Virus record (IMG/VR): IMGVR_UViG_3300045988_187870
Source of the DNA: a virus
Reading direction: 5' to 3' (one strand)
DNA length: 64,000 nucleotides
The translations under genes were made by a program, and so were the position numbers. Under the pieces are notes generated by a model. The model was not told where the DNA came from. It worked only from the letters and a program-made list of their open reading frames with translations, and did no database searches. Below, piece by piece: positions 3,339 through 64,000 of this stretch (position 1 is its first letter; the number at the start of each line of letters is the position of its first letter).

Positions 3339-4073
3339 ATGCGTATATGTAAAAAGGGAATTAATGACCTTAAAACTTGGTGCTCACAGCATGGAAATTT
3401 TGGTCAACAGCTAATGACCGAATGGACAGAAGATATTCCAATGGATAGCATAGCCAGAGGAAGTGGTAAAAAAGTCAAATGGAGATGTTCAAAAGGACAC
3501 GAGTGGTATGTAAGCATAAATGAAAGAACAGGGAAAAAGCGAAGTTGTCCTTATTGCTTTAGAGAAAACGCAAGTACATTGATGACAAAAGCAAGCCTTT
3601 CAGAAGAAAACAGTCTTAAAACCTGGTGTATGCAGAATGGCGCATTTGGTCAGCAGCTCATTAGTGAATGGACAGGCAAATTATATGACGGAACCAAAAC
3701 AAATTTAGATGAAGTAACAAGAGCAAGTGGCAAGAGAGTTAAGTGGAGATGTGACAAAGGGCATGAATGGTATGCTACAATATATAGTAGAACGAGACAA
3801 AAGTGTGGTTGTCCTTATTGTTCTGGACGGATGGCTTCAGAAGAAAACAGTTTAAAAACTTGGTGTATGCAAAATGGTGATTTTGGTAAGCAGCTTATGA
3901 GTGAATGGACAGGTGAGCTTGAAGATGGAGCTAAAACAAGTTTAGATGAGGTAGCAAAGGCAAGTCGTAAGAGGGTCAGGTGGAGATGTGACAAAGGGCA
4001 TGAATGGTATACAGCAATCTGGCAAAGAACAAGCCAGAAGACAGAGTGCCCTTATTGTTACAGAAAAAATTGA
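3339..4073 (+). CDS. protein of three tandem ~82-aa zinc-ribbon repeats (W..G.FGQQL..EWT...RV.WRC.KGHEWY...R...CPYC)
   Basis: three ~246-bp near-identical coding repeats; CxxC/CPYC pairs; RBS aaggagac. Confidence 0.7.
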   Translation: MRICKKGINDLKTWCSQHGNFGQQLMTEWTEDIPMDSIARGSGKKVKWRCSKGHEWYVSINERTGKKRSCPYCFRENASTLMTKASLSEENSLKTWCMQNGAFGQQLISEWTGKLYDGTKTNLDEVTRASGKRVKWRCDKGHEWYATIYSRTRQKCGCPYCSGRMASEENSLKTWCMQNGDFGKQLMSEWTGELEDGAKTSLDEVAKASRKRVRWRCDKGHEWYTAIWQRTSQKTECPYCYRKN

Positions 4074-15110: not shown

Positions 15111-15767
15111 GTGCCATTAAGATATAACCATAATTGGCTATTGTTTATTATACGAGCTGCAGCAGTAATACTATCTCTTATTTTGCCAGGTATTATTGTA
15201 GACGCCTTCTGTTTGTTCATGCTTTTGTTAGATATTATAACACAAAAAAAAATATGCACTCGGCATGAATTACCGAGCTTTGCAATTGATGTTGAGAGAC
15301 TTATAATTAGTGAAGCTCGACTAACAGGAATGAATACGAATGAAAAAAGTATCACAAATCTACGTGAGGCATGGGATCTAGTTTTAAGAACAATAAATTA
15401 CAAGCTTGACGCTTCCTACTTAGCAGCTATTTGTTTTTGCTTAAATTGTATCAATATGAATAAGGAGACTGACATTGAGATTCCGGAACCTTTAGAGAGA
15501 GCGCTTAAGGAAATCAAAGATCCTATTAGGTTATGTACATATCTATTAAAGCAACCATTGTTTGAACAAGGGGCAGTTACAATTGCTTTAATTGTTGCAA
15601 ATAAAGAATTGATACATACAAAAAGAGGTATTCTTTTGATACCAGAAGAAAAATTCCCAGAATTCAACAGGGAACTTGATGCGTACAGAAAATCAAATGA
15701 TGATAGTCAACTTTATGCTTTCTTATCTTCATGTATCGAACCATTTCCTGAAACTAAAGCAGCTTAG
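15111..15767 (+). CDS. hypothetical membrane-associated protein; start uncertain
   Basis: ORF; a 20-codon ORF with a strong RBS (aagggggt) at 15058 lies upstream in another frame. Confidence 0.35.
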   Translation: MPLRYNHNWLLFIIRAAAVILSLILPGIIVDAFCLFMLLLDIITQKKICTRHELPSFAIDVERLIISEARLTGMNTNEKSITNLREAWDLVLRTINYKLDASYLAAICFCLNCINMNKETDIEIPEPLERALKEIKDPIRLCTYLLKQPLFEQGAVTIALIVANKELIHTKRGILLIPEEKFPEFNRELDAYRKSNDDSQLYAFLSSCIEPFPETKAA

Positions 15768-17377: not shown

Positions 17378-17390
17378 CAATATACTATTA

Positions 17391-17424
17391 GCCAGGTCGC
17401 AAATGCGACCTGGCTTATTTCGTT
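17391..17424 (+). terminator. rho-independent terminator (10-bp stem GCCAGGTCGC/GCGACCTGGC, loop AAAT, then TTATTTCGTT)
   Basis: perfect hairpin plus T-rich tail. Confidence 0.7.
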
Positions 17425-17442
17425 ATAGAAAGGCTAGTGATT

Positions 17443-18231
17443 ATGTCTTATAGTTATGATGAAAAACTAAAGATGTTTAATGAGAATCTAGGGCTTGTTT
17501 ATACTGTTGTGTACAAACACTGGGGGTTAAAATATGTGCCTGAGGATGATCTGCTCCAAGAAGGTTTTATGAATTTATGGCTGATTATTGATTTATACAA
17601 CCCTGATAGCGGTACAAAATTTGCAACATATGCTTACGTAGCATTAACAGATAGACTGACTAAATTTACTTTAAAGTATCAGTATGGTAGCTCTATGCGC
17701 AGTTCTTCTTTTCAAGAAGCTATGCCTGCATTGCGTTATGCTAAGTTAAATAACATATCTGTTGATTTAGCATGTGATGCGTTAGGATTTAAAGGCGCTA
17801 AACGAGAATATGCATTGCTCATGGCAAAAGGCAGTCTTCTAGTGGAAAGTCTATCATCACCTGTAGTATCTTCAGACCAGGATTGTGAAACAACACTAGA
17901 GGATATTGTTCCTGATGCATACTCTTTAGCAGATGAGGTATGTGAAAAAGTATCGTCAGAAAATTTAAAGAAGATACTCTATACTGATTTCGTGCAATAC
18001 TGTATCAAAAAACATACAGGGAAGCCGCCTGACTATTTTGAAGATTTAGTAAAAATGTATCTTGATACGATTTTTAATGATGAGCATATCTCTCAGAATG
18101 CTATAAGTAAGAAAATTGGTGTATCTAATACAGTTGTTAGTAAACACTTTAAATGTTTCAAGCAAAATCTCAAGCAATTCATTATACAAAAACATTTGAT
18201 CTCGAGGAGCGTTTCACAATGTTCACACTAA
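17443..18231 (+). CDS. sigma-70 family RNA polymerase sigma factor (region 2 and region 4 HTH)
   Basis: LVYTVVYKHWG...DLLQEGFMNLW...FATYAYVALTDRL (region 2); C-terminal ISQNAISKKIGVSNTVVSKH HTH. Confidence 0.7.
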   Translation: MSYSYDEKLKMFNENLGLVYTVVYKHWGLKYVPEDDLLQEGFMNLWLIIDLYNPDSGTKFATYAYVALTDRLTKFTLKYQYGSSMRSSSFQEAMPALRYAKLNNISVDLACDALGFKGAKREYALLMAKGSLLVESLSSPVVSSDQDCETTLEDIVPDAYSLADEVCEKVSSENLKKILYTDFVQYCIKKHTGKPPDYFEDLVKMYLDTIFNDEHISQNAISKKIGVSNTVVSKHFKCFKQNLKQFIIQKHLISRSVSQCSH

Positions 18232-19446: not shown

Positions 19447-19758
19447 ATGCTTGCATTGGTTATTTTAGCAGGAATATTTTTAATCAATGTAGTAATATAT
19501 CCACCGCAGCCAAGCGAACTCATAAAAGGCACTGCAGATTTTACTATTGTTGATAAGTTTACCTTATCCAATAATTCAAAAAGGAACAACTATGTACGGT
19601 TACATTGCAAAGACTTGAATATTCAAATTATGATATGTGATAGTCAGATATATAGACATAGTAATTTAGGTACAAGTGTATCATTGCCTTATACATATCA
19701 GTATAGTAAGTATACATTCCCTACAACAAATTGTATCTTAGTGGAGGATTTGCCATGA
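19447..19758 (+). CDS. hypothetical protein with an N-terminal TM helix
   Basis: ORF. Confidence 0.4.
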   Translation: MLALVILAGIFLINVVIYPPQPSELIKGTADFTIVDKFTLSNNSKRNNYVRLHCKDLNIQIMICDSQIYRHSNLGTSVSLPYTYQYSKYTFPTTNCILVEDLP

Positions 19759-21285
19759 ACATCAAAAGATCACTTACAACATCTTTAGCAGCTTTGCTAT
19801 TAACTATTACCCACCCCCCCCCTAACACCACTGGTTAGTGCAGAAAGTAACAGTATCTCTATAGCACTTAATGATATTTGTACAAGTGGATATTATACTA
19901 TAAAGACTATCGAAGATCATGGCACACATTTAGTAGTTGATGCAGGGGCATGCGAGCATGGTTCTTACGCAACACATTATTATGATGCAGCAACAAATGC
20001 TACAAATATGTATAGTATGCAGTATAGAGGGGAATCAGGGCTAGTAAGAGATAAATATTCTAATGTAACAACAATACAAGCTAAAGAAGTTAATAATCAG
20101 ACAGGTATACCGATATCTTTTACGTTTTCACCACCACTGTATCAGGGTAAATATATTATTCCTGGTACAAAATATACAGTATCTTGGACAGGCGATGGTA
20201 GACATATTCCTATAAAGTTTCTAGGTAAGCTGAATTATGGAGATACAACAAGGACGACAATGTATGACTATATTTTAGGAGATTCTTATTCAGGATCTTT
20301 TACTGCACAGTTGGAATCTTTAGCAGTATTAAAATATGAACCAACTAGTTCAGCGAGTATAATATCTCTACCGAATGCAGCCGAGTCAGAAGTGGAGACT
20401 CCATCATCATATCAAAATCTAAAACTTTCTGTGACATCTAAACTTGCATTATGCCCATATTCTACACATCCAGTGATTTCAGGTGACCATCCTAATATTA
20501 CAACATCAAGCTATGGAGATAATGCATCTCATTCTGGAGGAACCAACTTCACATGTCACACCTGTAATCGTACATGGAATTATTCTGAGAGTGACGCTGG
20601 TTCAGATAATTCAAGCTCAAGTTCTTCAAGAAAGTATGTATATACAAATCATGAAGGACTTCAGCTAAGCCACCAATTCTATTCATCTGAATGTAGAATA
20701 ACATATACATGGGAGCCTTGTCCAATTCACGGGTATATTGGTCCACACGCAGTAGATGAGAAGTATAACGTTTGGGGAGACCTTGCGTATTTTACATATA
20801 CCGACTTTGGGCTTACTCAGGATGTGAATGTTGAAATTGATACTTCTTTTTATCATAGTAAAGATATAAGTGCGATATCTACAGTTGATGGCGCTTATCA
20901 TTACGCTCCGCAATTCGGATATAGTGGTGGCGCCCAAGCAAAGGCAGTCGTTGGTAAGATCTCGGTTGATACCGATAACATATGTGCAGGATATACTAAT
21001 TATGTTTATGCAATATCTGGAACATCAGTGACATACACACCAGTAACTTCTGTAAAGTATAAATATAAAGTTATTGATATGACTTACACAGAAGATGTTG
21101 CAGGGAAAGCACAACGCATCATTTCAGAAGGTGAGACTAGCAGAGCATTTACTTTTTCAATGCCACCGGCAGAAATTAAGATAGTTATTGAGGCCTCAAA
21201 ACTTCCGCAAACTATAATCACTACTACGAATCTAACCAAACAGTATAATAATACAAAATTTAATTTGGGAGCAACAGTTTCATAA
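19755..21285 (+). CDS. variable secreted protein, family member 1: signal peptide (MNIKRSLTTSLAALLL) + C9 tract + mature domain in the +1 frame (currently OFF)
   Basis: strong RBS gtggaggatttgcc; ATG frame stops 5 codons after the C tract; downstream frame open from the tract to TAA 21285; C-terminus ...YNNTKFNLGATVS. Confidence 0.6.
19814..19822 (+). repeat. homopolymeric C9 tract (slipped-strand or transcriptional-slippage site)
   Basis: nine consecutive C read directly. Confidence 0.8.
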
Positions 21286-21302
21286 TAGAAAGGTGGAAAA
21301 TC

Positions 21303-22776
21303 ATGAACATCAAAAGAACCATTGCAATAACTTTAGCAGTTGCAATGTTAGCAGTTACCCCCCCCCCATACATTAATACAACATGCCAGCGCAAGTACTG
21401 TTGTCTCTGCAACCAAAATCTCGCACAGCTATCCTTATGACTGCAATGAAGGTAGTTATGACGCATCACAGAGTCCTTATGATGGTACTTGGTATGTAAG
21501 GGATAAAAAATTATGTAAGCATGGATCTTTAGCGCCACATCTTTACGATGACAAAGGATATTGCAATTATATTTTGCATGATATAACTGCTGTTGATACA
21601 AAACTTGTTATGGATTATGAGGGAACTTATCATGGATATCCTGAACCATGTCTTTATGAATTCAATGTTAAAGATATTGCAGCAGATTTAGTGGCATCTG
21701 GAATACCTGTGACAGTCTCTATATCTGGACCGATGTATGAGAATAAGTATTTTATTGCAGGGTATAAATATAAACTTAAGACATCGTGTCCTTATCACGT
21801 ACCGCTACTATTATCCTCTAAGGCAGGTGTATTTATAGACGCATATTCAGATGAGGTTGAGGTAATTCCAGAGCAATCAATAGGCCACTCTCTAAGCGTA
21901 GGCACATTATCTGGGCAGATATCTATTGCAAAACGTGATACTAAGACGGTAACTCATGATGCCTTAGCTTGTAGCGAAGGATTTCGGAAGATAATTGGTA
22001 CGCATAAAGATGTACATAGTTCACCAGGAGAAAATCACACAATTTATGATGATAAAGGTAATGCCATTGGTGGATATGGAACAACAAATCATTACTGTGC
22101 ATATTGTAGAACCGGATGGCAAACTGGGGGCAATGCTGTAACTCCAGGATATACAGGAGATGTTTATGACAAAAATGGAAATAAGGTAGGCAGCATATCT
22201 GAATCTGATTGGGGCTCAGATAATACAGGATTAAAATTGGTTTTACTTAATGGACTGCCGTGGTCAACACAGCCTGTGACGGAAAGTAATGCATGTATAA
22301 CTGCGAAGTATGATGTTTGCAGTGAGCATGCTAATTATGTAGGTCCACATTATTTTTGTCCAGATCACGGCTATGTGGGAACATCTAGATACTGTACATA
22401 TGCACTGGATGGTAAGCTATTATATGCAGACACAAAATGCTATGGATTTTCAGGAAATGGGTTTGACAGTATTTCAGTGTATAGTGTGACAATTAAAGGA
22501 GTCAACGGTGCTACAGGATATGCGGATTATGTTTCTTCTGTTCCAGGTGTATTAAATCATTTACACATGTCAAAGAAAACGAAATATCATATCACTACTG
22601 ACCAAGGCACTGAAATATCCTCTGGCGTAGGGACATCTGTTCCATTTACTATGCAGGATGAAAATATCATTATAAAGTTGGAACCAGATAAGCTAACTCA
22701 AACAGTCACATTACAGGGTTTATTGCATAAAACATATAATACAAAAACTTTTAATTTAAGCGCAACTGTTTCATAA
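21303..22776 (+). CDS. variable secreted protein, family member 2: signal peptide + C10 tract + out-of-frame mature domain (OFF)
   Basis: RBS gaaaggtggaaaatc; the ATG frame stops at about 21435; the mature frame is open from the tract; C-terminus ...YNTKTFNLSATVS. Confidence 0.6.
21358..21367 (+). repeat. homopolymeric C10 tract
   Basis: ten consecutive C. Confidence 0.8.
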
Positions 22777-22791
22777 CAAGGAGGAATAATC

Positions 22792-23501
22792 ATGAATATT
22801 AAACGAGCAATAAGTACAGCTTTAGCAGCTATCTTAGTAGTTACCCCCCCCCCCTGAGAGAGGTTAGCGCAGCTTCTTTTTGCCAGGAATATCATCTGCT
22901 GAAGGATACCCACAATGCGTGGGCTTCTCGTGATGATGTTGTGAAATTGCTTGGAGTTAACCCAGACAGTCACACCTTCAGTAACATACATAGCGGTAGT
23001 CATGAAGAATCGACAGGAGCTCCATCCGGAACTCCACAGTATGTTTATCTGTCTTTTATAAGAATCTACATTGACCCTAGACTGACGGGTACTTTTGAAC
23101 TTCATACATTTCATTTCGCGCATGATGACACAATGACATATAATGAATCTTCTAGTGGACTATATCAAGTATATAAGGGTTCAACTGATAGCTATCCTAC
23201 ATTAGGCACTATAGATATAAGATACGTGCCATCACAGGAAGATTTAAGCCGCGGAGTCTCATTTGTGAAAACAGATTCAAAAACTAGAGCTGTTCCTTCA
23301 GATTTTGCAAAAGTAGATCCACTGGCATCTAGCTTTAATATATCTGTTGGAACTGGTGACACTTGCGCCTTCACATTATCAGATATGCTATCCTATGCAC
23401 AGTATGGTGTCTTTAAACAGCCACAGGAAATATCTGTTTGTAAGAACCAGTTAGCAACATACAATCAAGCAGCATTTAATATTATGGTCAGTATCACATA
23501 G
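22792..23501 (+). CDS. variable secreted protein, family member 3: signal peptide + C11 tract + out-of-frame mature domain (OFF; TGA immediately after the tract in the ATG frame)
   Basis: RBS caaggaggaataatc; C-terminus ...YGVFKQPQEISV...YNQAAFNIMVSIT. Confidence 0.55.
22844..22854 (+). repeat. homopolymeric C11 tract
   Basis: eleven consecutive C. Confidence 0.8.
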
Positions 23502-23514
23502 GAGGATACAATAA

Positions 23515-24213
23515 ATGAACATTAAGAAACAAATTGCTACATCTTTAGTAGCTTTAATGATGTTACTCCCACCCCCACCCATAACACAAACTGCTAAAGC
23601 AGTAACATCTACATCTTCAGCCGAAGAGATTGCTAAAGAATTATTTAATTATGAAGATGATGCTTTTAAGGCAATCTATGCAGGAGTAAACAATAGTTAT
23701 AATTCTAGCACTCATGAATCAGGACATAGTCATGGATCATGTATAGTTGTTGATCCTCGTATAACAGGAAAAGTTGAAGTTTACGCACAACGTGCCAATA
23801 GTACCTCTGAAGATGAAATTCTGGGTAATAGAGACTCTTGTTCTTGGTCATTTTCAGTAAATGGAAGAGGTGAATACTCTGGACATAGTAGAATAAGAGT
23901 AGAATATACACCGTCGTCAGAAGATATTATGAATGGCGCTGTTGTATTATGCACACCGCAGCCTTTAACATATACGGGAGCTAATGATTTAGTCTATTTT
24001 GATGGTTCAAGACGATACATCGTAATGCCATCTACTCCTGGAACTACATGTAAGTATAGCACGCAATACTTAGGCTATGGCATAACATTTAAAGATGTAG
24101 TTAAATATGCATTTCCAACTGCATTTCAAGAGTCACAAACAATTATAGTGACAACACCTTGTACAACGATATATAATAAGCCACAGTTTAATCTAGGAGC
24201 ATCAGTTTCATAA
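23515..24213 (+). CDS. variable secreted protein, family member 4: in frame (ON) with an interrupted tract CCCACCCCCACCC (LLPPPPIT)
   Basis: a single ORF includes the signal peptide; RBS taggaggatacaataa; C-terminus ...YNKPQFNLGASVS. Confidence 0.75.
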   Translation: MNIKKQIATSLVALMMLLPPPPITQTAKAVTSTSSAEEIAKELFNYEDDAFKAIYAGVNNSYNSSTHESGHSHGSCIVVDPRITGKVEVYAQRANSTSEDEILGNRDSCSWSFSVNGRGEYSGHSRIRVEYTPSSEDIMNGAVVLCTPQPLTYTGANDLVYFDGSRRYIVMPSTPGTTCKYSTQYLGYGITFKDVVKYAFPTAFQESQTIIVTTPCTTIYNKPQFNLGASVS

Positions 24214-24228
24214 AAAGGAGGCATTATG

Positions 24229-24507
24229 CATATCAAGAAAACTTTGGTAGTCGCAGTATTTGCACTACTGTTATTTACTCCCCGCTAACTAGTCTCAAAG
24301 AACTTATTAGCCACTAAATTATCTGAAGAAGGATATGGTACTGAGCAAATGCAAATACCAGGTGGTACAATTTGCTTTTTGCTTGCAGACGTGATTTCAT
24401 ATGGGAAATATGGTGTTTTTAAGCAATCACAAGATATCACAGTAGATAGCACTAAATCAGTAACATATAACCAATTATCGTTCAATCTAGGAGTTACAAT
24501 TTCCTAG
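24229..24507 (+). pseudogene. truncated family member: signal peptide (MHIKKTLVVAVFALLLFTPR*) followed out of frame by a ~65-aa C-terminal module (...YGVFKQSQDITV...YNQLSFNLGVTIS)
   Basis: RBS aaaaggaggcatt; homology of both ends to family members. Confidence 0.5.
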
Positions 24508-24519
24508 AAAGGAGTAACT

Positions 24520-26012
24520 ATGAATATAAAGAAAATAGCAATGAGCTTAGCAGCAAGTTTACTAATGCTAGTTTTATCTCCCCCCCCACCCAACTGGTCA
24601 ATCTAGCAAGCGCAGAAACTGTAGTTGTTGATTCATGTTTTACTCAAGTAGGAGCAATAAATTATTCAGCATACTGTTCAGATTGCAACTATGCAATACA
24701 ACAAATAACAACTCCTGACAATAAGCATTATTGGAGGATGGCGGACAGTGCTAAAAAGTGCAGCCATGGCTCTTATAACCCACACTATTATAATCCAAGT
24801 ACAGGTGAGTGTTCTGGAAGAGTAACAGGAGTTGATTATTCAACTGCAGTACCAATCAGAGAAGGACAACCATCTCTCAGCGCAGTACCGTATTATACAT
24901 TCGATCCTATTTTAGCAGCTGCACCTCTTAGAAAGTATGCACAGAATGTAAGTGTATCTTATACAGGAAATCTATACCAAGGTAGTTATTATATTTACGG
25001 TAAGTCTTACACTCTATCTATAAAATCATCAAGTCATATTCCAATTACAGTTGAGAATTCATCTTTACTCTATGATGCATATAATATGAACACCAGTGTA
25101 CCTGTAAGTTCAAGTCTGTATACTATTGGGACATTATCAGGAGATGTTACTTTGTATTTAGGCCTTGGCAGACTTCAGCATAGAACAACTCTATGTCCAA
25201 ATAGTCAGCCAGTCTTAACGGGATCACATAAAAATGCTCATGAGGTAAGTTCTTGGTCAGAGAACTATAACGACGGTAATGGTAATATCATAGGTGGTGC
25301 TGGCGGAGCTAAGTTTGAGTGTTCAGCTTGTGGTGCGGCATGGACAGTGTCTGGAGGTGGGCTTACTACTCCTGGATACTCAGGTTCAATCTACAATAGT
25401 GATGGAGATCTAGTAGGAGGAATATCATCATCTAGTGGTACAACGAGCTCTTGGGGTGTGGGTCTTATGCTCGAACGCGGTGATTTTAATTATTCAGCTG
25501 GATCAAGTCTGGTTAGAAAAAATCCATGCTATACAGCAACTTATCCTGTATGTACCAAACATGATAACGCAGTAGGTGCACATTTTTATTGTGAAAGACA
25601 TAATTATTATGGGTTGTCAACCCTTTGCCCATTCGATGATAGAGGTAATCTCTTATATAAAGATGCCAGAGTGTATCAGTTTTATGATCAAAAAGATGAA
25701 ACAAGGGTATACTCTTGTAATTTGTCATGTGCACGTGGAACATTAGTGTATGCCAATTATGCATCTACAGTTCCGGGTGGGCATATTACACTAACTAACG
25801 CAACAAACAGTGACGCAAAATATACAGTCATTGCTAATTCCAAGACTGTTGCATCAGGTGTTCTAACATCAAGTGCTACTTTTGATATGCCTAGTGCAGA
25901 TGTCGTAGTCTATGTCGAGCCGGTTAAGCTTGCACAAAATGTTTCAGTATTAACGAGTTATACAATGCACTATAATAATCAAACATTCGATCTGCAAGCA
26001 GTTGTCTTTTAG
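24520..26012 (+). CDS. variable secreted protein, family member 5: signal peptide + C8(ACCC) tract + out-of-frame mature domain (OFF)
   Basis: RBS gaaaggagtaact; the ATG frame stops at about 24606; the mature frame is open from the tract to 26012; C-terminus ...YNNQTFDLQAVVF. Confidence 0.6.
24580..24587 (+). repeat. homopolymeric C8 tract (followed by ACCC)
   Basis: eight consecutive C. Confidence 0.8.
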
Positions 26013-26042
26013 AGAGGATACTTGTAAAAGTAAAGAAACATT

Positions 26043-26230
26043 ATTAGAAGTGGTAACGCTACATCTATAACTGATACATTGAAAGTAAATGAGGCTGTGA
26101 CATATACAACTTACGGATTAACCAGTATTTCATTGGAAGCTTCAAAACTAACACAGGCATTATCAATTCAGAACAGATTTAGCAAGCAGTACAACAGTAC
26201 TAAATTTAACTTAGGAGTAGCAGTTACATA
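26043..26230 (+). pseudogene. orphan C-terminal cassette of the variable family (...LEASKLTQALSIQNRFSKQYNSTKFNLGVAVT*), with no signal peptide or RBS
   Basis: a 62-codon open frame homologous to the last ~60 aa of member 1. Confidence 0.5.
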
Positions 26231-26232
26231 AA

Positions 26233-26760
26233 ATGAAACTCTTTAACTCAATCATGTTAGGCCTAGCAATCGGACTATTAATCTTTAGTGGCGTGTTGCT
26301 AGGCTTATCTTCACAAATAAACAATCTTATACAGGCAGATTATGTTGAATTTGCAAAAGAACAGGTTGCCATAAATAAGCAGAATAGCACATTGATTGTA
26401 TCATCGTCTCATCCGGAAGGTATTATTCTCGACGATCCAACTAGTGAATTTCATCAGACACTTTTAATACCTGAGCATCCCGGCAAGTATACGGTCTCGC
26501 TCGTTGATATCTATTTGCCAAGTGTTGCTGTTTTTATTCCAAATGTATGGAATTGCTTTAACTATCAACCATCAACGATAAAAGTCGCTACACTGCAAGA
26601 TGCTGACGTGTCATCTTTAGTAGACGCGGAAATAAATTATGTTACAGCACAATGCAATGTGACATATCAAAATATGGCATTATTGCTTGTTACACAAATT
26701 GCAATATCTGCTTTACTTATATGTTTAGCTTTAGCAGGATTAAAAGACAGAGAGGATTAA
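26233..26760 (+). CDS. membrane protein (N- and C-terminal TM helices)
   Basis: ORF; hydrophobic termini. Confidence 0.5.
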   Translation: MKLFNSIMLGLAIGLLIFSGVLLGLSSQINNLIQADYVEFAKEQVAINKQNSTLIVSSSHPEGIILDDPTSEFHQTLLIPEHPGKYTVSLVDIYLPSVAVFIPNVWNCFNYQPSTIKVATLQDADVSSLVDAEINYVTAQCNVTYQNMALLLVTQIAISALLICLALAGLKDRED

Positions 26761-35883: not shown

Positions 35884-36364
35884 AATGATATGTTTTCTTT
35901 GCGGTAAACCTTTAGCAGGCAAACGTACTGCAAAATATTATTTGGCATCAACCATTATACGTAAGTGGACAAATCCTAACAGCATTCAGACAAAGCCAGA
36001 GCTGTCCATAAAGGTTGAGACACATGCTTCATGTGCTGCAAGATATCAGGGCACAATAACACTTCTTGCATCTGAGCGATTTAAAAGTCTTTCAGAAGCA
36101 GATCAGGTGCGCTATAGATCAGCTTATGACAATTCTATTAGTATAGCACGTTATGTTAATACTCTTAGCAAGGTAGTTAGAAGTCAGAATAACAAATGTG
36201 CATATTGTGATACAAAAATTACTATGGAAACAGCAGTTCTTCGACGCAGAGACTGTTCAAAACCTAGAGTATGCTGGAATGCAGATGCTGTTTGCATTGA
36301 CTGCAACCATCTGATGAATAAAATCAATTATCAGCTTGAAAGGAGTCAGTGTGGATCTTCTTGA
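35884..36364 (+). CDS. Zn-finger / HNH-like nuclease-domain protein, translationally coupled to the RT
   Basis: N-terminal CxxC; C-terminal KCAYCD...RRRD...N...CIDCNHL resembles an HNH motif; RBS aaggagatagta; the stop overlaps the RT start. Confidence 0.35.
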
Positions 36365-37568
36365 AGCACTATTTGAGCAGGACATTTGGGAAAATGTTAT
36401 TGACAAAGGAGCAGACAAGACAATACCATTATCAGTGCTAAGGAAGTGGTGTCATGTAGATAAACGTCTTGAACTACTGAATAAGATTATTGCAGGTGAG
36501 TACAATATCAAACCTCCAACTCTTGCTCGGATACCTAAAGACAATGGAAAATACAGAGAAATCTGTGTTAACACTGCTGATGACAGAGTTGTTTTAGCAG
36601 CTGTTAATCAAGCACTTTATAAACTGTTTGATTATAAGCTTTCTCCTGCATGTAAAGCATATCGAGAAGGACATAGCTGTGCTAAAACAGTGCAGGAAGC
36701 AGTGAAACACAAAATGTTCGGGTATAAGCTTGATCTGAGTAAGTACTTTGATTCTGTTCCTCATGAAGTCATTAATAAAGCTTTAGCAGAGCTTGACACT
36801 GATTCTCCACTAGAGCAAGTATTGTATAAATATTACAATGATGATACTGTCTATCAGAACCATCAGCTCATTCCGAGATTCAAGTCTCTAGCACAGGGTT
36901 GCGCTGTAGCATCATTTTTAGCTAACTATATTCTGACAGATGTTGATAACAGAATGATGCAGGAATGTCTTTACTATTGTAGATACTCAGATGATATGCT
37001 GCTCTTGTGTGAGGATCAGCAATCTGCAGATAAAGCTTTAGCAGTATTAAAGCAGATGCTTGATAAACTTGGATTATCTCTAAATCCAGACAAGGTCGAG
37101 GCAATCTCTCCTTTAGCAGAGTTTAAGTTTCTTGGTTTTGGTATTCTTGGCGATACGATAACCATATCACAGAAAGATTTCAAGCAAAAAAAGGCAGAAG
37201 TTAAACATGCCTGTAGAGTGGTTGAGACGAATAGAAAGATTTCTAAAGATAAGAAACTCAGAGCTGCTATTAAAGCTGTTCAAAAGGTGTTTTTCTCAAC
37301 TGCAGATCCATCTTATGGTTGGCTCCATTCAAAAGCTATGGGAATAAATAATTTTGAACGTATTGGTGAGCTCGATGCCTACTGTAAGGATTGCATTCGT
37401 GCAGCAGTGACAAGTAGTCAGAATTATACACACAATATTCATACCATTTCAAATGAGCAGCTATCTTTAGCAGGATATGTATCTTTGGTGCATATGGCTA
37501 AGCTTGTTCAGATTGATAAATCCCTGTATGAGACAGAGCATTTGCTGCATATTCAGCAACATAAGTAG
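36351..37568 (+). CDS. reverse transcriptase (RT domain motifs 1-7 plus a C-terminal thumb/X-like region); group-II-intron-like (FLGF), class unresolved
   Basis: IPKDNGKYREI, DRVV, LDLSKYFDSVPH, QGCAVASFLANYIL, YCRYSDDMLLL, LSLNPDKV, FKFLGFGI; GTG start 7 nt after aaaggag. Confidence 0.85.
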   Translation: MDLLEALFEQDIWENVIDKGADKTIPLSVLRKWCHVDKRLELLNKIIAGEYNIKPPTLARIPKDNGKYREICVNTADDRVVLAAVNQALYKLFDYKLSPACKAYREGHSCAKTVQEAVKHKMFGYKLDLSKYFDSVPHEVINKALAELDTDSPLEQVLYKYYNDDTVYQNHQLIPRFKSLAQGCAVASFLANYILTDVDNRMMQECLYYCRYSDDMLLLCEDQQSADKALAVLKQMLDKLGLSLNPDKVEAISPLAEFKFLGFGILGDTITISQKDFKQKKAEVKHACRVVETNRKISKDKKLRAAIKAVQKVFFSTADPSYGWLHSKAMGINNFERIGELDAYCKDCIRAAVTSSQNYTHNIHTISNEQLSLAGYVSLVHMAKLVQIDKSLYETEHLLHIQQHK

Positions 37569-40429: not shown

Positions 40430-40492
40430 GATCATACCTGCTTTAGCAGTTATGAAATATACATTATTTTTTTTCAATGGAGGATTATACCA

Positions 40493-58950: not shown

Positions 58951-58982
58951 TCATGTATGTGTCCGCCATATGGGGGACATAT

Positions 58983-61900
58983 ATGAAAAAAGTCATAGCA
59001 ACAATCATGGCTGCGGCAGTTATGCTGTCGCAGCTTTCTTTACTCGTCAAGGCAACAGATGGTAATCCTTTAGCAGTATCAAATAGAGTGACTGCAGACA
59101 TTAATGAACTTAGACAGCGCGAAGAGGATATCAAAAATCAACGTGCTGCGCAAAAAGCAGCCTCAAGAGCCCTAATTAACTACGGAAAAACTACGGGAAA
59201 GACAAATGATCTCTCGTTTTATATAAATCGTAAAAATCTGACTAAACGCGAATTCGAAGCATTCAAGTGGTCATTTATATTTAGTCAGTTTGCACATCCT
59301 TTAGAAGATTCTTTATTAAATGTTTTTGATCAGGATTTCTTTCAAGAATTGTCTAAGGCTGATCTTGATATTGATTCAGTTAGAACGACGATTTTGAATA
59401 GTGGCTTAGTAGCAGATTCTGATGATATCAAAGCTAGCTCGATGGATACAGATCTTCAGGCAATGATGTTGCAAGATGTGAATTTTAATGAATTAGCTGA
59501 AGTTATAAAGTCTAATTATGCTATATACCCGTTAGTAGACTCAAATGGAACACCTGCAAGCCTGGATTCTTTTATATCAGGGGATCTCGGTCTTTATGAG
59601 CCTTTCTTTATCTATGACACCCATGGAACTGCTGATAGTGTTAATGAACTTAATGCACTTTTATATTCCAAGGATAAACTGACCGACCTGGATAAGAATT
59701 ATGGAGATAAATGGACTCTTACAGGGTTTACAACAGATGATTCTGCAGAACCCTATAAAGTGCCTGTATTATTTTATGACAGTAATACATTTTTAGCTAT
59801 GCAGATGGCAATGACAATCTACATGACAAATAATGATTACAGTTCTCTGACAGAAGCGGTGGCATTTCTTGGTGCGCAAACTTTAGCAGTAGATTCTTAT
59901 GGTAATATTTGCTTACAGAAGCAATCAGGCGACGCTGTTATATTTATCCCCAACTTTTATAATACAGTATTAACATCAGTGTTATGCGAGATAGATGGCG
60001 GTGAGAAGACTAAACAGGCTTTGCGTGAGACAATGGATTTGTTTAATGTTTGGTTTGTTGCATTGTATTCAAAAAACACTAGAACTCGTACAACTATTTA
60101 TCCAGCTGTTTATACAACACATGTAAATGGTAGTACATCAAAAATCGTAAACCCAGATACTGGCGAAATTGAAGAAAAGGCAACAGAAGTCTTAGCAGAC
60201 CATTACGCACAACTAATAGGAGGTACAAGTCACTCATTATCTCGAAAGTTTCTGTTGGTAGAAAACTCAATCATATCTCCAGGAGAACAGCAAACTCAGG
60301 CTGTAGTGGATAGTGCTATAGATAATAAAGATGATGAAACTGCATTAGCATTTTCTCATGCAGCAAAAATGATAGCAGAAAAAACATTGAGTGAGTATAT
60401 AGATTCTTGGTTTCCTGGAAACATGAGTTCACGTCCAAAATCTGACGCATCAAATGTTGGTACTCTCGTTTCACCTTATAACACACATGCTTCAGCATTT
60501 ATGCCATTTACTGCAAATGACTCGAGTAAACCAACATACTTTGAGAATAAGTATCCACTTGCACAAGCACAAGTTGCCTTTAAGGAAAAAGATGTAATAA
60601 GCTCTGATGCAGCAAGTGCAACAAACTTTAGCAGGTTTGCAGCTATACTTGAAAATGCAAAATGGAAGTATATACTCTCTCCGAGAAGAGGAAGCTATAG
60701 TACTCATAGTATACAGAGCTCCATGCATGCAGCATACAACGATAGTTCAAATATGATGGCTATTAATCCAACTGTTTCATTGATGACATCACTTCCAGCA
60801 GAGCAACTCATTCCAGACTTAAGATTTGTTAGTGCAAAGAAGAGCGAGCAATCAACAGGAGCTAGAACAGTAATATTTTTGCCAAAAGAAATACTTGACT
60901 TAGGACAGACCATGTCTGCATATACTCTATCAGATGAGAAAGGAATGTTCTTGTCTCAATATGAGGTTTATTTCTCGGGAGATATAGAAAGATTTCGAGA
61001 GTATATGCTGGGAACATATAATCAAGTTCTAGGTACAGATTCAGGCCGATTCTTGACAGTAGATTATGATAGTGGAGTGCTCAAGGTGAAATCACTAGCG
61101 ACCTTTAACAGAACCTATCTCACTGAAGACACTGAATTTACACTATCTTGGAGCACTAATAAATATACTAGTACAGATTTTTTCGATTATGTTCATTACA
61201 GTATTAAAGATGAGTATAAAAGCGGTCATTACAATGAGGGAGCACGATATGTTTATGAGGTCTTGAAGGAAAAAAAGGACGAAGATGGTAATACATATTA
61301 TGAAAATTATGATCCTCCAAAATACACCGTTAGTAGTGATGAGAAGTCCGGAGACAAGTACAGTTTTATTGCCGCTTATTATTATGATTCTGATATTATT
61401 GATCCGGGCATATCTACTGGTTCATGTAGCGAGATTCCAACACCAGATTACAAGTTGAAAAATGATAGTGCAGACGCTAAAATGAAAGCAGGAGCTCAAG
61501 CCTTATGGGCAGCAGGTGCTGCTATTGCAGGTATGTCAAAAGATGCAGAATATGGTAGTACTGAAGGATTTCAGAAGCTCTTAGCAGATGTGTGTGCATC
61601 ATGTGGCTTTAACACAGACGAATTCTATTACATGCTCGTAAACATCTATAGATTCAATGGAAAAGATAATGGTACATTTGGAATAAACAGTGTTTATTTC
61701 TATGATGAATATACTTGTCTATTGCGTAATGGTGCAACAGCATTTTCTGATATTGATTGTGAGAACTCTGATGACTTTGTGCAAACAACTTATTACTGGG
61801 ATAGATATTATTTAACTAAACAGCAGCTTTCTCAGGATGTTTCAGATTATGTAAACAAGCAGTATGAGTCTATAGATTCTTTAGTAAGTGATTATGAAAA

Positions 61901-64000
61901 TTATCTTAATCAGACATTTCAAACATCACTACAATATAGTTTTTCGCGGTATCTACAGGATTACAAGAGTACAGCAACACTTCCACCATTTGCAAACGAA
62001 TACGCACTGCAGGTTCAATCTTTAGCAGAGTGGAAGACTAAGAATCCTGCAGTATCAAAACTGCTACAAAGCAAACAAGCTTCTCTCGTGTATGAGTATT
62101 TAGCAGACGATACAATAATTCTATATCCATTTGGATGGGATGATTATTATTATGATCTACACTTGTATGCCGGAGCAGGGGATACAATATACCAACATTC
62201 AGCAAGTGGAGAGGCAAATACAGAGCAGATAAATGTAGCTAGAACTAAGACATCTGTTAATTTAATTCAGACACTATTAGCTCTGCAGAAGAATACAGAT
62301 TATCAGCACAATAATCTTAAAACAACATATACTCAGCGCATAGATGAAAATCATGTAACTAGGGAGGAATTGATGGATAAGGCAAATCAGTTCTTTGACA
62401 GTCCAGTCTCAGGGCTAAGCTACATCTTAACAGGATTCCTTTATCAGATTCATGAATCTGTAGCAACTGGAGATTTTGGTAGCATATTCAACATTAGCTA
62501 TTTAACAGAAACTGATGCATATAAGTGGATAATGGATAGATACATTGCATTAGTTACAATAGCTATTGCAATTGTATTATTCCTTAAGCTTATTCAATTC
62601 GCAATGAATAAGAGCAAGGATTTTGCACACATTGGACGTTCTATTTTAGGTATCTTAGCAATGTGTATGGTCCCTGTAGTAGTCTTTAACAGTTTTGTAT
62701 GGGCATTTGATGTCTCGTCAGATTGGGCGATGAAGAGTACATCAGATAAGATACTTCTTGCACAAATAAACAGATACTGTTCAGATGCAAATAATGATGG
62801 TAATGTGACTGCAGAAATTACTGCCTTTAAACAGCAATTTAGCAGTGTGAAGGGTACATATGATTGTCTGCAATTCGAGCAGATGACAAACTACTCACTT
62901 GGCTCCGGTCCAGTATATTCAGTAGTGCCTATTTCGGACATGATTGCAAATCTACAATATTCAACATCATATGACACATGGTACTCTAATAAATCATTTA
63001 TACCAGTCCATCAAGACTTATATAAGGATTCTTATTTCTACTTCTTTTATGACTATATTAAGCAAGAATTCTTAAAGTATTCAGCAGAGCACGATGACGG
63101 TAGTTCGGAAGTAAAACAAGCAGGCGAAAGCTTTGAAACTAATCGCAAAAGCTTAAAAGCAGGCTCTGCTGATGATATCGCAAAGGATATTAATGCAGCA
63201 GAAAATCTGTTCAGAACATCACGCGGCAGTTTCAGACGTATGCTTCTTGACACAGACTTTGTATATAAAAACTCTGTGCATGAAACACAAGAAGCAAGAT
63301 ATGGTGGACCTCATGCAACTGATTTAGCAGGTATGTACATGATTTTCGATGCGTCTGCAGCAGGACAAGTTACTAAGACCCTACAAGACACAGTGTACTT
63401 TAGAGCATATACAGATGCAGATGCAATGAAGGTATCTAATGAAGGAATGATATCTGAAACATGGCTGAATCAGAATGCGATTAGTGATTATGTAGAAAAA
63501 CAGATTTCTCTAGGCAAAGGTATTCGTGGTGACCCTGGAAAAGGTTCATATGCAATCTATACTTCAGGACTTGACCCATATGAAGGAACTTTGAATACAA
63601 ATGCTTATTTAACAGATGCAACAAATACAGCTACAGCACCTATTATAACACCACTCGAACAGGCGCTTATCGATGTTACAGAAAAGACATACAATCAGAC
63701 AATGACAGCTCTTAACTATCTTCCTGGACAGATGCATGATGAAGCAGCAATTGTGCTAATGGCTTATATTGCCACATTTAATCTCAATCAGGCGATGAGT
63801 TATGAACCTCAAGCACCTTTAACACAGTCTGTTACTCTGGATGATGTTGTTTCTACAGCATTCCTAACAGACCTTGACATGATAGGCACAGAGACGAATA
63901 CTCTATATGCTATGATAGCTCAAGGTGATAGTGTAGGTAAGGCAGCAATAGTTGTTATACTTGAAATAATCATTTGCTTATCGTCAATATTCAGAGTACT
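58983..64000 (+). CDS. giant secreted/surface protein (more than 1670 aa; partial, runs off the window) with a signal peptide and internal TM segments
   Basis: RBS ggggga 6 nt before the ATG; no in-frame stop found on manual codon-by-codon reading to the window end; absent from the ORF track because it has no stop. Confidence 0.6.
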   Translation, partial: MKKVIATIMAAAVMLSQLSLLVKATDGNPLAVSNRVTADINELRQREEDIKNQRAAQKAASRALINYGKTTGKTNDLSFYINRKNLTKREFEAFKWSFIFSQFAHPLEDSLLNVFDQDFFQELSKADLDIDSVRTTILNSGLVADSDDIKASSMDTDLQAMMLQDVNFNELAEVIKSNYAIYPLVDSNGTPASLDSFISGDLGLYEPFFIYDTHGTADSVNELNALLYSKDKLTDLDKNYGDKWTLTGFTTDDSAEPYKVPVLFYDSNTFLAMQMAMTIYMTNNDYSSLTEAVAFLGAQTLAVDSYGNICLQKQSGDAVIFIPNFYNTVLTSVLCEIDGGEKTKQALRETMDLFNVWFVALYSKNTRTRTTIYPAVYTTHVNGSTSKIVNPDTGEIEEKATEVLADHYAQLIGGTSHSLSRKFLLVENSIISPGEQQTQAVVDSAIDNKDDETALAFSHAAKMIAEKTLSEYIDSWFPGNMSSRPKSDASNVGTLVSPYNTHASAFMPFTANDSSKPTYFENKYPLAQAQVAFKEKDVISSDAASATNFSRFAAILENAKWKYILSPRRGSYSTHSIQSSMHAAYNDSSNMMAINPTVSLMTSLPAEQLIPDLRFVSAKKSEQSTGARTVIFLPKEILDLGQTMSAYTLSDEKGMFLSQYEVYFSGDIERFREYMLGTYNQVLGTDSGRFLTVDYDSGVLKVKSLATFNRTYLTEDTEFTLSWSTNKYTSTDFFDYVHYSIKDEYKSGHYNEGARYVYEVLKEKKDEDGNTYYENYDPPKYTVSSDEKSGDKYSFIAAYYYDSDIIDPGISTGSCSEIPTPDYKLKNDSADAKMKAGAQALWAAGAAIAGMSKDAEYGSTEGFQKLLADVCASCGFNTDEFYYMLVNIYRFNGKDNGTFGINSVYFYDEYTCLLRNGATAFSDIDCENSDDFVQTTYYWDRYYLTKQQLSQDVSDYVNKQYESIDSLVSDYENYLNQTFQTSLQYSFSRYLQDYKSTATLPPFANEYALQVQSLAEWKTKNPAVSKLLQSKQASLVYEYLADDTIILYPFGWDDYYYDLHLYAGAGDTIYQHSASGEANTEQINVARTKTSVNLIQTLLALQKNTDYQHNNLKTTYTQRIDENHVTREELMDKANQFFDSPVSGLSYILTGFLYQIHESVATGDFGSIFNISYLTETDAYKWIMDRYIALVTIAIAIVLFLKLIQFAMNKSKDFAHIGRSILGILAMCMVPVVVFNSFVWAFDVSSDWAMKSTSDKILLAQINRYCSDANNDGNVTAEITAFKQQFSSVKGTYDCLQFEQMTNYSLGSGPVYSVVPISDMIANLQYSTSYDTWYSNKSFIPVHQDLYKDSYFYFFYDYIKQEFLKYSAEHDDGSSEVKQAGESFETNRKSLKAGSADDIAKDINAAENLFRTSRGSFRRMLLDTDFVYKNSVHETQEARYGGPHATDLAGMYMIFDASAAGQVTKTLQDTVYFRAYTDADAMKVSNEGMISETWLNQNAISDYVEKQISLGKGIRGDPGKGSYAIYTSGLDPYEGTLNTNAYLTDATNTATAPIITPLEQALIDVTEKTYNQTMTALNYLPGQMHDEAAIVLMAYIATFNLNQAMSYEPQAPLTQSVTLDDVVSTAFLTDLDMIGTETNTLYAMIAQGDSVGKAAIVVILEIIICLSSIFRV

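Follow-up and report, generated by a model that had tools for sequence, protein, structure and literature searches.

The 64,000-nt virus record IMGVR_UViG_3300045988_187870 (this whole stretch of DNA is called the window below) contains an array of six consecutive plus-strand genes and a seventh remnant, occupying positions 19755-26231, in which four of the genes appear to be broken at the same place. In each of these four, an uninterrupted run of C residues lies within a predicted signal peptide, the frame that starts at the ATG ends shortly after the run, and a different frame is open from there to a conserved C-terminus. This raises the question of whether the genes are decaying, wrongly sequenced, expressed in spite of the frameshift, or switched by changes in the length of the tract. 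Our analysis makes the last of these the most probable answer, namely slipped-strand phase variation of a tandem family of putatively exported, all-beta proteins resembling immunoglobulin-like (Ig-like) domains or InlB B-repeats, carried by a phage-like element and with some members locked ON. Throughout, an allele is called ON when the ATG frame runs through the signal peptide into the mature domain, and OFF when it does not. The members of the array are as follows.

g1: 19755..21285, plus strand; Shine-Dalgarno (SD) site, ATG, signal peptide, C9 tract (19814-19822) and 482-codon mature frame; OFF in the window.
g2: 21303..22776, plus strand; signal peptide, C10 tract (21358-21367) and mature frame of about 470 codons; OFF in the window.
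g3: 22792..23501, plus strand; signal peptide, C11 tract (22844-22854) and mature frame of about 215 codons; OFF in the window.
g4: 23515..24213, plus strand; the in-frame member, 232 amino acids (aa), with the interrupted tract CCCACCCCCACCC at 23568-23580; locked ON.
g5: 24226..24507, plus strand; a decayed member whose signal-peptide open reading frame (ORF, 24226-24288) has C4 only and stops after 20 codons.
g6: 24520..26012, plus strand; signal peptide, C8 tract (24580-24587, then ACCC) and 467-codon mature frame; OFF in the window.
g7 remnant: 26079..26231, plus strand; the C-terminal module alone, ending …KLTQALSIQNRFSKQYNSTKFNLGVAVT and a stop codon.

The genes are tightly packed, with spacers of just 12-17 nt, and every gene has its own strong SD site: GGAGG, AGGTGG, AGGAGG or AAGGAG is found 6-9 nt 5' of each ATG (19755, 21303, 22792, 23515, 24226 and 24520). 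At the protein level the paralogs are 26-33% identical, with 42% for the short g7 fragment. What they have in common is a C-terminal motif, KLxQxIxV...YNxxxFNLGAxVS, which was evident in the paralog alignment and was recovered as DNA repeat families D3 and D4 in a repeat search of the window; in g5 a separate 52-aa ORF at 24349-24507 keeps this C-terminal module. The unit repeated from one paralog to the next therefore consists of the C-terminal motif, stop codon, SD site, ATG, signal peptide and tract, and this unit is also seen as DNA repeat families. The 5' regions are 64-76% identical in the aligned DNA repeat family. We considered gene conversion as the source of this common 5' module, and recent homogenisation is unlikely since the same regions are just 39-62% identical in a gap-free comparison.

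The tracts of g1, g2, g3 and g6 (C9, C10, C11 and C8) are the only runs of at least seven C in the 64-kb window, and no G run of at least seven occurs there. At the composition of the window (37.6% GC, 17% C), arithmetic from the base counts gives a chance expectation of about 0.04 runs of C8 or longer. Each tract starts 52-60 nt 3' of an SD-preceded ATG, is preceded by a K/R-rich n-region and a hydrophobic core of 12-14 residues, and lies within the signal peptide, past the hydrophobic core but before the AxA cleavage region. Changing the tract lengths in silico showed how frame depends on length. With the C9 of the window, the ATG frame of g1 ends after 27 codons, and C8 or C11 fuses it to the stop at 21285; g2 at C10 ends after 45 codons and is ON at C9 or C12; g3 at C11 ends after 21 codons and is ON at C12 or C9; and g6 at C8 ends after 28 codons and is ON at C9 or C6. 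In every ON reading an AxA signal-peptidase motif is restored (VSA|E, ASA|S, VSA|A and ASA|E), past which the frame runs through 210-480 open codons to the conserved C-terminal motif. Other long homopolymers of the window are an A9 run (15244-15252) and a T8 run (40467-40474), either of which might be a further switch.

These results bear directly on an earlier note on this DNA, which had reported the four tracts, strong ribosome-binding sites, and an ATG frame that stops shortly after the tract and is fused to the mature frame by a gain or loss of one C. Tract lengths and positions (C9 at 19814, C10 at 21358, C11 at 22844, C8 at 24580) proved correct to the base, the SD-type sequences stand before all six ATGs, and the length series reproduced the predicted frames. 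The note had placed the tract exactly at the junction of signal peptide and mature domain; its position is indeed conserved but is inside the signal peptide, before the cleavage region rather than after it. Similarly, the C-terminal ending YNxxxFNLGAxVS described there is present in the alignment and in the DNA repeats, but is looser in g3 (YNQAAFNIMVSIT) and g6 (YNNQTFDLQAVVF).

We assembled allele tables from about 30 loci (designated L001, L002 and so on) in independent human-gut metagenome assemblies from more than 10 studies; a scan of Joint Genome Institute (JGI) metagenomes added 4 loci. Flanking sequences were nearly identical across the loci, while the pure tracts spanned C7-C13 with both ON and OFF alleles, amounting to 7-9 alleles per tract gene over 12-24 loci. 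The alleles, together with the corresponding proteins (P numbers) in the public collection, were distributed as follows.

g1: seven alleles in 12 loci (C8, C10, C12, or CCCA followed by C9, C10 or C11), ON at C12 and CCCA-C11; proteins are full length with signal peptide at 508-510 aa (P0002, P0022, P0024, P0031) or truncated at 424/425 aa.
g2: eight alleles in 17 loci (C7-C12 and interrupted forms), ON at C9; proteins are full length with signal peptide at 490 aa (P0001, the C9 ON form) or truncated at 400 aa.
g3: nine alleles in 20 loci, pure C9-C13 being variable and the interrupted CTC7AC5 being invariant and ON in 7 loci; proteins are full length with signal peptide at 235-237 aa or truncated at 186 aa.
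g4: two interrupted alleles in 23 loci, one per lineage, with no variation within a lineage; always ON.
g6: seven alleles in 24 loci, where C5, C7, C8 or C10 followed by AC3 is OFF and C6AC3 is ON (P0066); proteins are full length with signal peptide at 495/496 aa or truncated at 424 aa.

Length variation was a property of the pure tracts. The interrupted tracts of g4 and g5 and of some g3 and g6 alleles never varied: the g6 allele CCTCCCC was invariant and locked ON, giving 495 aa in 12 loci (CCTCCC is OFF), and the sequence of g5 was the same in all 21 loci examined. g4 was full length (232/238 aa) throughout its 23 loci and in 11 of 13 cluster members, every complete member having 232 aa, in agreement with the earlier description of this gene as an in-frame copy locked ON by an interrupted tract. 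Moreover, ON alleles 3 nt apart exist (THPPL versus THPPPL, and C9 versus C12 in g3); since these differ by a whole Pro codon, they could not be produced by base-calling errors of plus or minus one.

The confinement of change to the tracts was also clear in a 6.86-kb alignment, in which close relatives differed from the window by 0-4 substitutions but by 3-7 tract indel columns. Off the tracts, the alignment contained just two indels of one base each (an A6 run being the site of one) and a 6-column block in L011 at ambiguous bases. DNA-level polymorphism limited to pure tracts was thus observed directly across independent samples, as were the architecture of the array and the dependence of its frames on tract length. 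We further noted that three contigs begin inside the g3 tract (L014:1, L031:1 and L033:1), that L001 ends 13 nt past it, and that one scaffold has an N-gap there (L013:5267-5320). The tracts appear to fragment assemblies of the element, and these breaks fit either heterogeneity or difficulty at the tract.

We propose that slipped-strand mispairing at DNA replication would alter the length of a C tract that is read as Pro codons between the hydrophobic core and the AxA region of a Sec signal peptide. In one of the three length classes modulo 3, the signal peptide would be joined to the mature domain and the gene would be ON; in the other two, the product would be a peptide of 21-45 aa and the gene would be OFF. 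If the four tracts varied independently, up to 16 expression combinations could arise besides the constitutively ON g4. A base substitution within a tract would abolish its slipperiness and so act as a lock, which could account for members locked ON (g4, some g3 and g6 alleles) and locked OFF (g5, the L006 allele of g6). We infer that switching within one population is frequent and reversible. Slipped-strand phase variation, which the earlier note had offered alongside transcriptional slippage, is supported by near-identical loci that carry many tract lengths, have ON and OFF outcomes and differ in indels at the tracts.

The same design recurs in distant relatives, which the earlier note had suggested looking for. 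L015 and L016 encode proteins about 30% identical to the window family, in tandem arrays of 5-7 secreted paralogs that carry precomputed Ig_Eae (PF26918) matches. Over these two loci (42 kb), all five G/C runs of at least seven are at the signal-peptide junction: C11, C8 and G10 in L015 (the G10 at L015:12712, in Gly codons), and two C10 runs in L016. Shifting the frame at any of the four poly-C runs recovers a cleavage site of AxA type and leads into the mature domain; at the G10 run, the shifted frame recovers an ANA motif but meets another stop about 20 codons on. Another L016 gene has a (CT)9-10 repeat encoding LSLSLS within its signal peptide (L016:11733-11800), and in a third lineage, a close one represented by L003 and L004, a tract is C8 and OFF. 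Because repeats of different chemistry occupy one position, it is slipperiness, and not polyproline, that selection would be maintaining. Proteins of 1,762-2,936 aa are encoded downstream of the L015 and L016 arrays, one of them with a weak Big_2 match.

Mature frames of 210-480 codons are open in nearly all loci, and the OFF genes are under purifying selection, with ratios of nonsynonymous to synonymous divergence (dN/dS) of 0.28-0.5 for the mature frames of g1, g2 and g6 (0.28-0.49 for g2 alone). Secondary lesions do occur: the g2 of L008 is in frame but cut short by an indel at an A6 run, and stop codons interrupt g2 of L002 and g6 of L013. g4 behaves differently from its neighbours. Between the window and L020-L029 and L032 it differs by about 21% at the nucleotide level, with a dS of 0.24-0.27 and a dN/dS of 0.9-1.0, compared with less than 3% for neighbouring genes, which suggests allelic replacement or diversifying selection on the sole member unable to switch off. 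Gene content also changes, g1 having been deleted in some lineages and being absent from the lineage L020-L029. At L030:2700-2900, the g1 upstream region and the first approximately 33 nt of the gene run into the remainder of the g2 signal peptide, and g1 itself is missing. Copy number in the array appears to have changed by recombination between the conserved 5' modules.

Three other explanations have to be weighed against DNA-level switching. The apparent frameshifts could be sequencing or assembly errors at homopolymers, in which case the genes would be intact paralogs. Homopolymers are error-prone, some tracts coincide with contig breaks or N-gaps, and odd calls occur in L012, which is probably a long-read assembly. 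The earlier note had itself raised this objection, and it does not survive the comparison of loci: the same OFF lengths recur in several independent short-read assemblies (MEGAHIT, SPAdes and Logan), the range of C7-C13 far exceeds plus or minus one, and ON alleles differ by whole codons. The correction needed would also be -1 in two genes and +1 in two others, whereas the A/T runs and the remaining sequence of the 6.9 kb are essentially free of indels, the interrupted tracts are invariant, and the out-of-frame layout recurs in distant relatives, including those with poly-G and (CT)n repeats. We therefore regard this as scarcely credible, and as the least probable of the three. It is also very improbable, if marginally less so, that the array consists of decaying pseudogenes, relics of a secreted family in which expansion of polyproline codons broke the frame by chance. 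Decay is certainly present, since g5 and the seventh remnant are clearly degraded, secondary lesions affect g2 of L008 and L002 and g6 of L013, and some lineages have lost g1. However, nearly all loci have long open frames under purifying selection, ON alleles occur frequently in public data, and long pure tracts have been retained in paralogs that are otherwise about 30% identical, as well as in distant lineages.

Expression at the level of RNA or translation deserves more weight than either of these; we still consider it unlikely as the main route, though it may contribute. Here RNA polymerase would slip on the C/G run, or tRNA-Pro would shift by +1 or -1 on CCC-C, so that all genes would be constitutive at a low level tuned by tract length, and variation in DNA length would be secondary. 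Runs of at least nine identical bases and CCC-C codons are slippage-prone, and alleles of the window-like lineage are mostly OFF yet intact under purifying selection, as such a mechanism would allow. On the other hand, the shift needed differs by gene (-1 nt for g1 and g2, +1 nt for g3 and g6) and by allele; a programmed frameshift normally has a fixed direction, and the array has no fixed slippery site of conserved direction. No stimulatory element turned up, though none was searched for. True in-frame DNA alleles are directly observed and common, and the poly-G and (CT)n repeats of the relatives do not share tRNA-Pro slippage.

Several observations nevertheless weigh against slipped-strand phase variation of exported proteins, or at least against a simple form of it. 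L005, L007, L011 and probably the source of the window itself all have the same 9/10/11/8 OFF configuration, so that consensus tract states can be stable. Of the 47 tract-gene states in the window-like lineage, about 4 are ON, whereas neutral drift would predict one-third; this low share could reflect selection for OFF, or expression that normally proceeds through RNA-level slippage. Tract calls in the probable long-read assembly L012, which has an odd g3 call of C12 plus T, are possibly unreliable. On the protein side, export of the products is predicted from sequence features, the five window array proteins had no significant Pfam match, and structure searches gave matches to a generic beta-sandwich fold only.

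What the products might be is indicated by more distant comparisons. A family profile searched against 1.84 billion representative proteins had just 22 matches, including a handful of distant full-length members, nearly all of which end in …YNxxxFNLxAxV. Profile positions 365-450 recruited multi-repeat 'divergent InlB B-repeat' (Flg_new_2) proteins, the approximately 80 residues before the C-terminal motif matching their repeat unit; the distant member P0087 matched Flg_new_2 below the cut-off (E-value 4.5e-4). In P0077 the C-terminal motif runs on into a Big_2-like Ig domain that scores under the Pfam cut-off, and this continuation makes the motif resemble the opening strands of such a domain. 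An AlphaFold model built from 13 sequences was all-beta, with a confidence (predicted local distance difference test, pLDDT) of 67; the C-terminal motif is disordered in the model. The products are therefore predicted, from profiles and model, to be exported, Cys/His-rich, all-beta, Ig-like or InlB-B-repeat-like and adhesin-like, with putative cleavage at the AxA sites.

Similarity to virion proteins was not found in a BFVD fold search with the g2 model, nor among the window ORFs scanned against PHROGs, a scan that did not include the array proteins. The suggestion that the genes encode receptor-binding proteins is without support; the Sec signal peptides would imply export from the cell. That they encode variable surface proteins is plausible. 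Our best guess, held with low confidence, is that, under fluctuating selection, the products alter or coat the surface of an infected or lysogenic cell, serving in adhesion or in the exclusion of other phages. More tentatively, and with rather more doubt than belief, we envisage a large gut phage with an opa-like 'phasome', in which the members of an exported Ig-like operon switch independently, each infected or lysogenic cell has a different surface repertoire as bet-hedging against competing phages or host immunity, and the locked-ON g4 diversifies by sequence instead. As a speculation, the C-terminal motif, seen as the first two strands of an Ig-like domain of which P0077 has a complete copy, could dock interchangeable phase-variable 'heads' onto a common anchor, for example the membrane protein encoded 3' of the array.

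The closest bacterial parallels place the switch in the same part of the gene. In Neisseria, CTCTT repeats in the leader-peptide coding region of the opa opacity genes set the frame of each copy independently; the Opa proteins are beta-barrel outer-membrane proteins of a Gram-negative organism, encoded by dispersed chromosomal genes with pentamer repeats. The array resembles opa in being a multigene family with a repeat within the signal-peptide region and combinatorial ON/OFF states of exported proteins, and the (CT)n signal-peptide repeat of L016 is especially similar. Unlike the opa genes, those of the array stand in tandem in an operon-like arrangement, are switched by homopolymers and are carried by a phage-like element, and no relationship in sequence or fold is known. 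The nanH3 sialidase gene of Gardnerella piotii has a poly-C tract of 8-14 directly after the signal-peptide region, is ON at C9 or C12, gives a 37-44-aa peptide at other lengths, and shows tract heterogeneity within a culture; annotation pipelines call truncated, signal-less NanH3 proteins (bioRxiv 10.1101/2020.09.16.300947). The layout is alike in that poly-C at the signal peptide sets the frame. Whereas nanH3 is a single actinobacterial chromosomal gene for a known enzyme, the locus described here comprises 4-7 tandem paralogs, is carried by a phage-like element and includes derivatives locked ON or OFF.

Among phages, Fletchervirus is described, in 2021 work as cited in PMC12633550, as carrying G/C homopolymers of 7-11 nt in several genes, giving rise to subpopulations with different protein repertoires. 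Phage-borne G/C homopolymers vary the protein repertoire in both cases; in contrast to the Fletchervirus tracts, which lie in virion receptor-binding proteins and change host range, those of the array lie in predicted Sec signal peptides of exported, non-virion-like proteins and are mostly OFF. Homopolymer slippage has also been proposed as bet-hedging in T2/T4 and other coliphages, where the contingency loci of T-even phages are A runs of 6-9 nt scattered in normally ON genes such as agt and rIIA (Gomez, Barrick & Waters, bioRxiv 2025.10.21.683753). That preprint states that no contingency loci had been attributed to phages before, and it names as earlier phage homopolymer cases the Fletchervirus receptor-binding proteins, a BPP-1 methylase and a PB1-like baseplate gene (bioRxiv 2025.10.21.683753). 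Unlike the T2/T4 runs, the tracts described here are long (8-13 nt), consist of C and occupy a single conserved position in a dedicated family of paralogs. In the literature searched, no dedicated gene family was found that encodes exported proteins in tandem, has the repeat within the signal peptide and is conserved across phage lineages. The mechanism is familiar; what is unfamiliar is the carrier, the multigene layout and the export of the products.

Phase variation through repeats is a classic device of bacteria. To the known switches such a locus would add one that is multigene and combinatorial and that governs exported rather than virion proteins; the phage-like element carrying it recurs in human gut metagenomes. 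The locus offers a testable system for studying how phages vary the surface of cells that they inhabit, as existing datasets already allow tract lengths to be determined. It also exposes a systematic annotation problem, as gene callers give signal-less fragments of 400-425 aa or wrong-frame starts. An example of the latter is found at the 5' end of g2 (window 21291-21370), where a GTG within the ribosome-binding site of g2 begins a stretch, open in the third frame, that extends through the signal-peptide region; at C8 or C11, gene callers give a 493/494-aa 'MENYEHQKN…' protein without signal peptide (P0008, P0013 and P0014). These forms of g2 are probably an annotation artefact.

Finally, we examined the surroundings of the array. 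Genes in the window are all on the plus strand and mostly novel, and the following features flank the array.

17390-17415: terminator-like hairpin, preceding the sigma-70 region-2 gene.
17437..18231, plus strand: sigma-70 region-2 protein, upstream of the array and likewise in L003 and L005-L013.
26233..26760, plus strand: 175-aa protein with hydrophobic N- and C-terminal segments, directly 3' of the array, a position kept in all loci; it could be assigned to no family.

There was no convincing terminator inside the array, only two weak consensus matches with 5- and 7-bp stems, and the results of a scan for promoters and terminators were no better than in shuffled sequence. The window encodes an HK97-type major head protein (phrog_422, E-value 4e-63), whose nearest relatives are Firmicutes siphophage capsids at 36% identity, together with a weak terminase-like match, a DHH phosphoesterase and a ParA-like protein. 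Contigs bearing the locus reach 320-400 kb and more. Neither the locus nor 24 kb of the window had a DNA match among 50,697 phage records, scans of IMG/VR with g2, g4 and P0077 revealed no relatives, and none were found in GTDB species representatives in scans with g4 and the upstream MatE-like gene. The element could be a huge phage; alternatively, it could be a prophage whose host has no representative there.

Further upstream, L017:1-9500 (10 kb upstream of the window) encodes on the same strand a dCMP deaminase, two MatE-like transporters, a nucleoside deoxyribosyltransferase, a CheX/CheC-like protein and a DUF1848 protein. These genes would be unusual cargo for a phage, and the stretch may be phage or host DNA. 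Reverse transcriptase (RT)-like genes (phrog_1423, RVT_1) are present at 36336-37568 in the window and at L017:8208-9416, about 2 kb upstream of the window start. A diversity-generating retroelement was considered on account of the window RT and was rejected, as no direct repeat resembling a template repeat/variable repeat (TR/VR) pair was found in the window. At the far end of the window (approximately 58980-64000), an ORF of at least 1,691 aa with the signal-peptide-like start MKKVIATIMAAAVMLSQLSLLVKA runs past the window end. Near its beginning, positions 3339-4073 hold an internal triple repeat of units of about 237 nt, 65-79% identical, within one ORF, and the equivalent L017 gene has a DUF4379 match.

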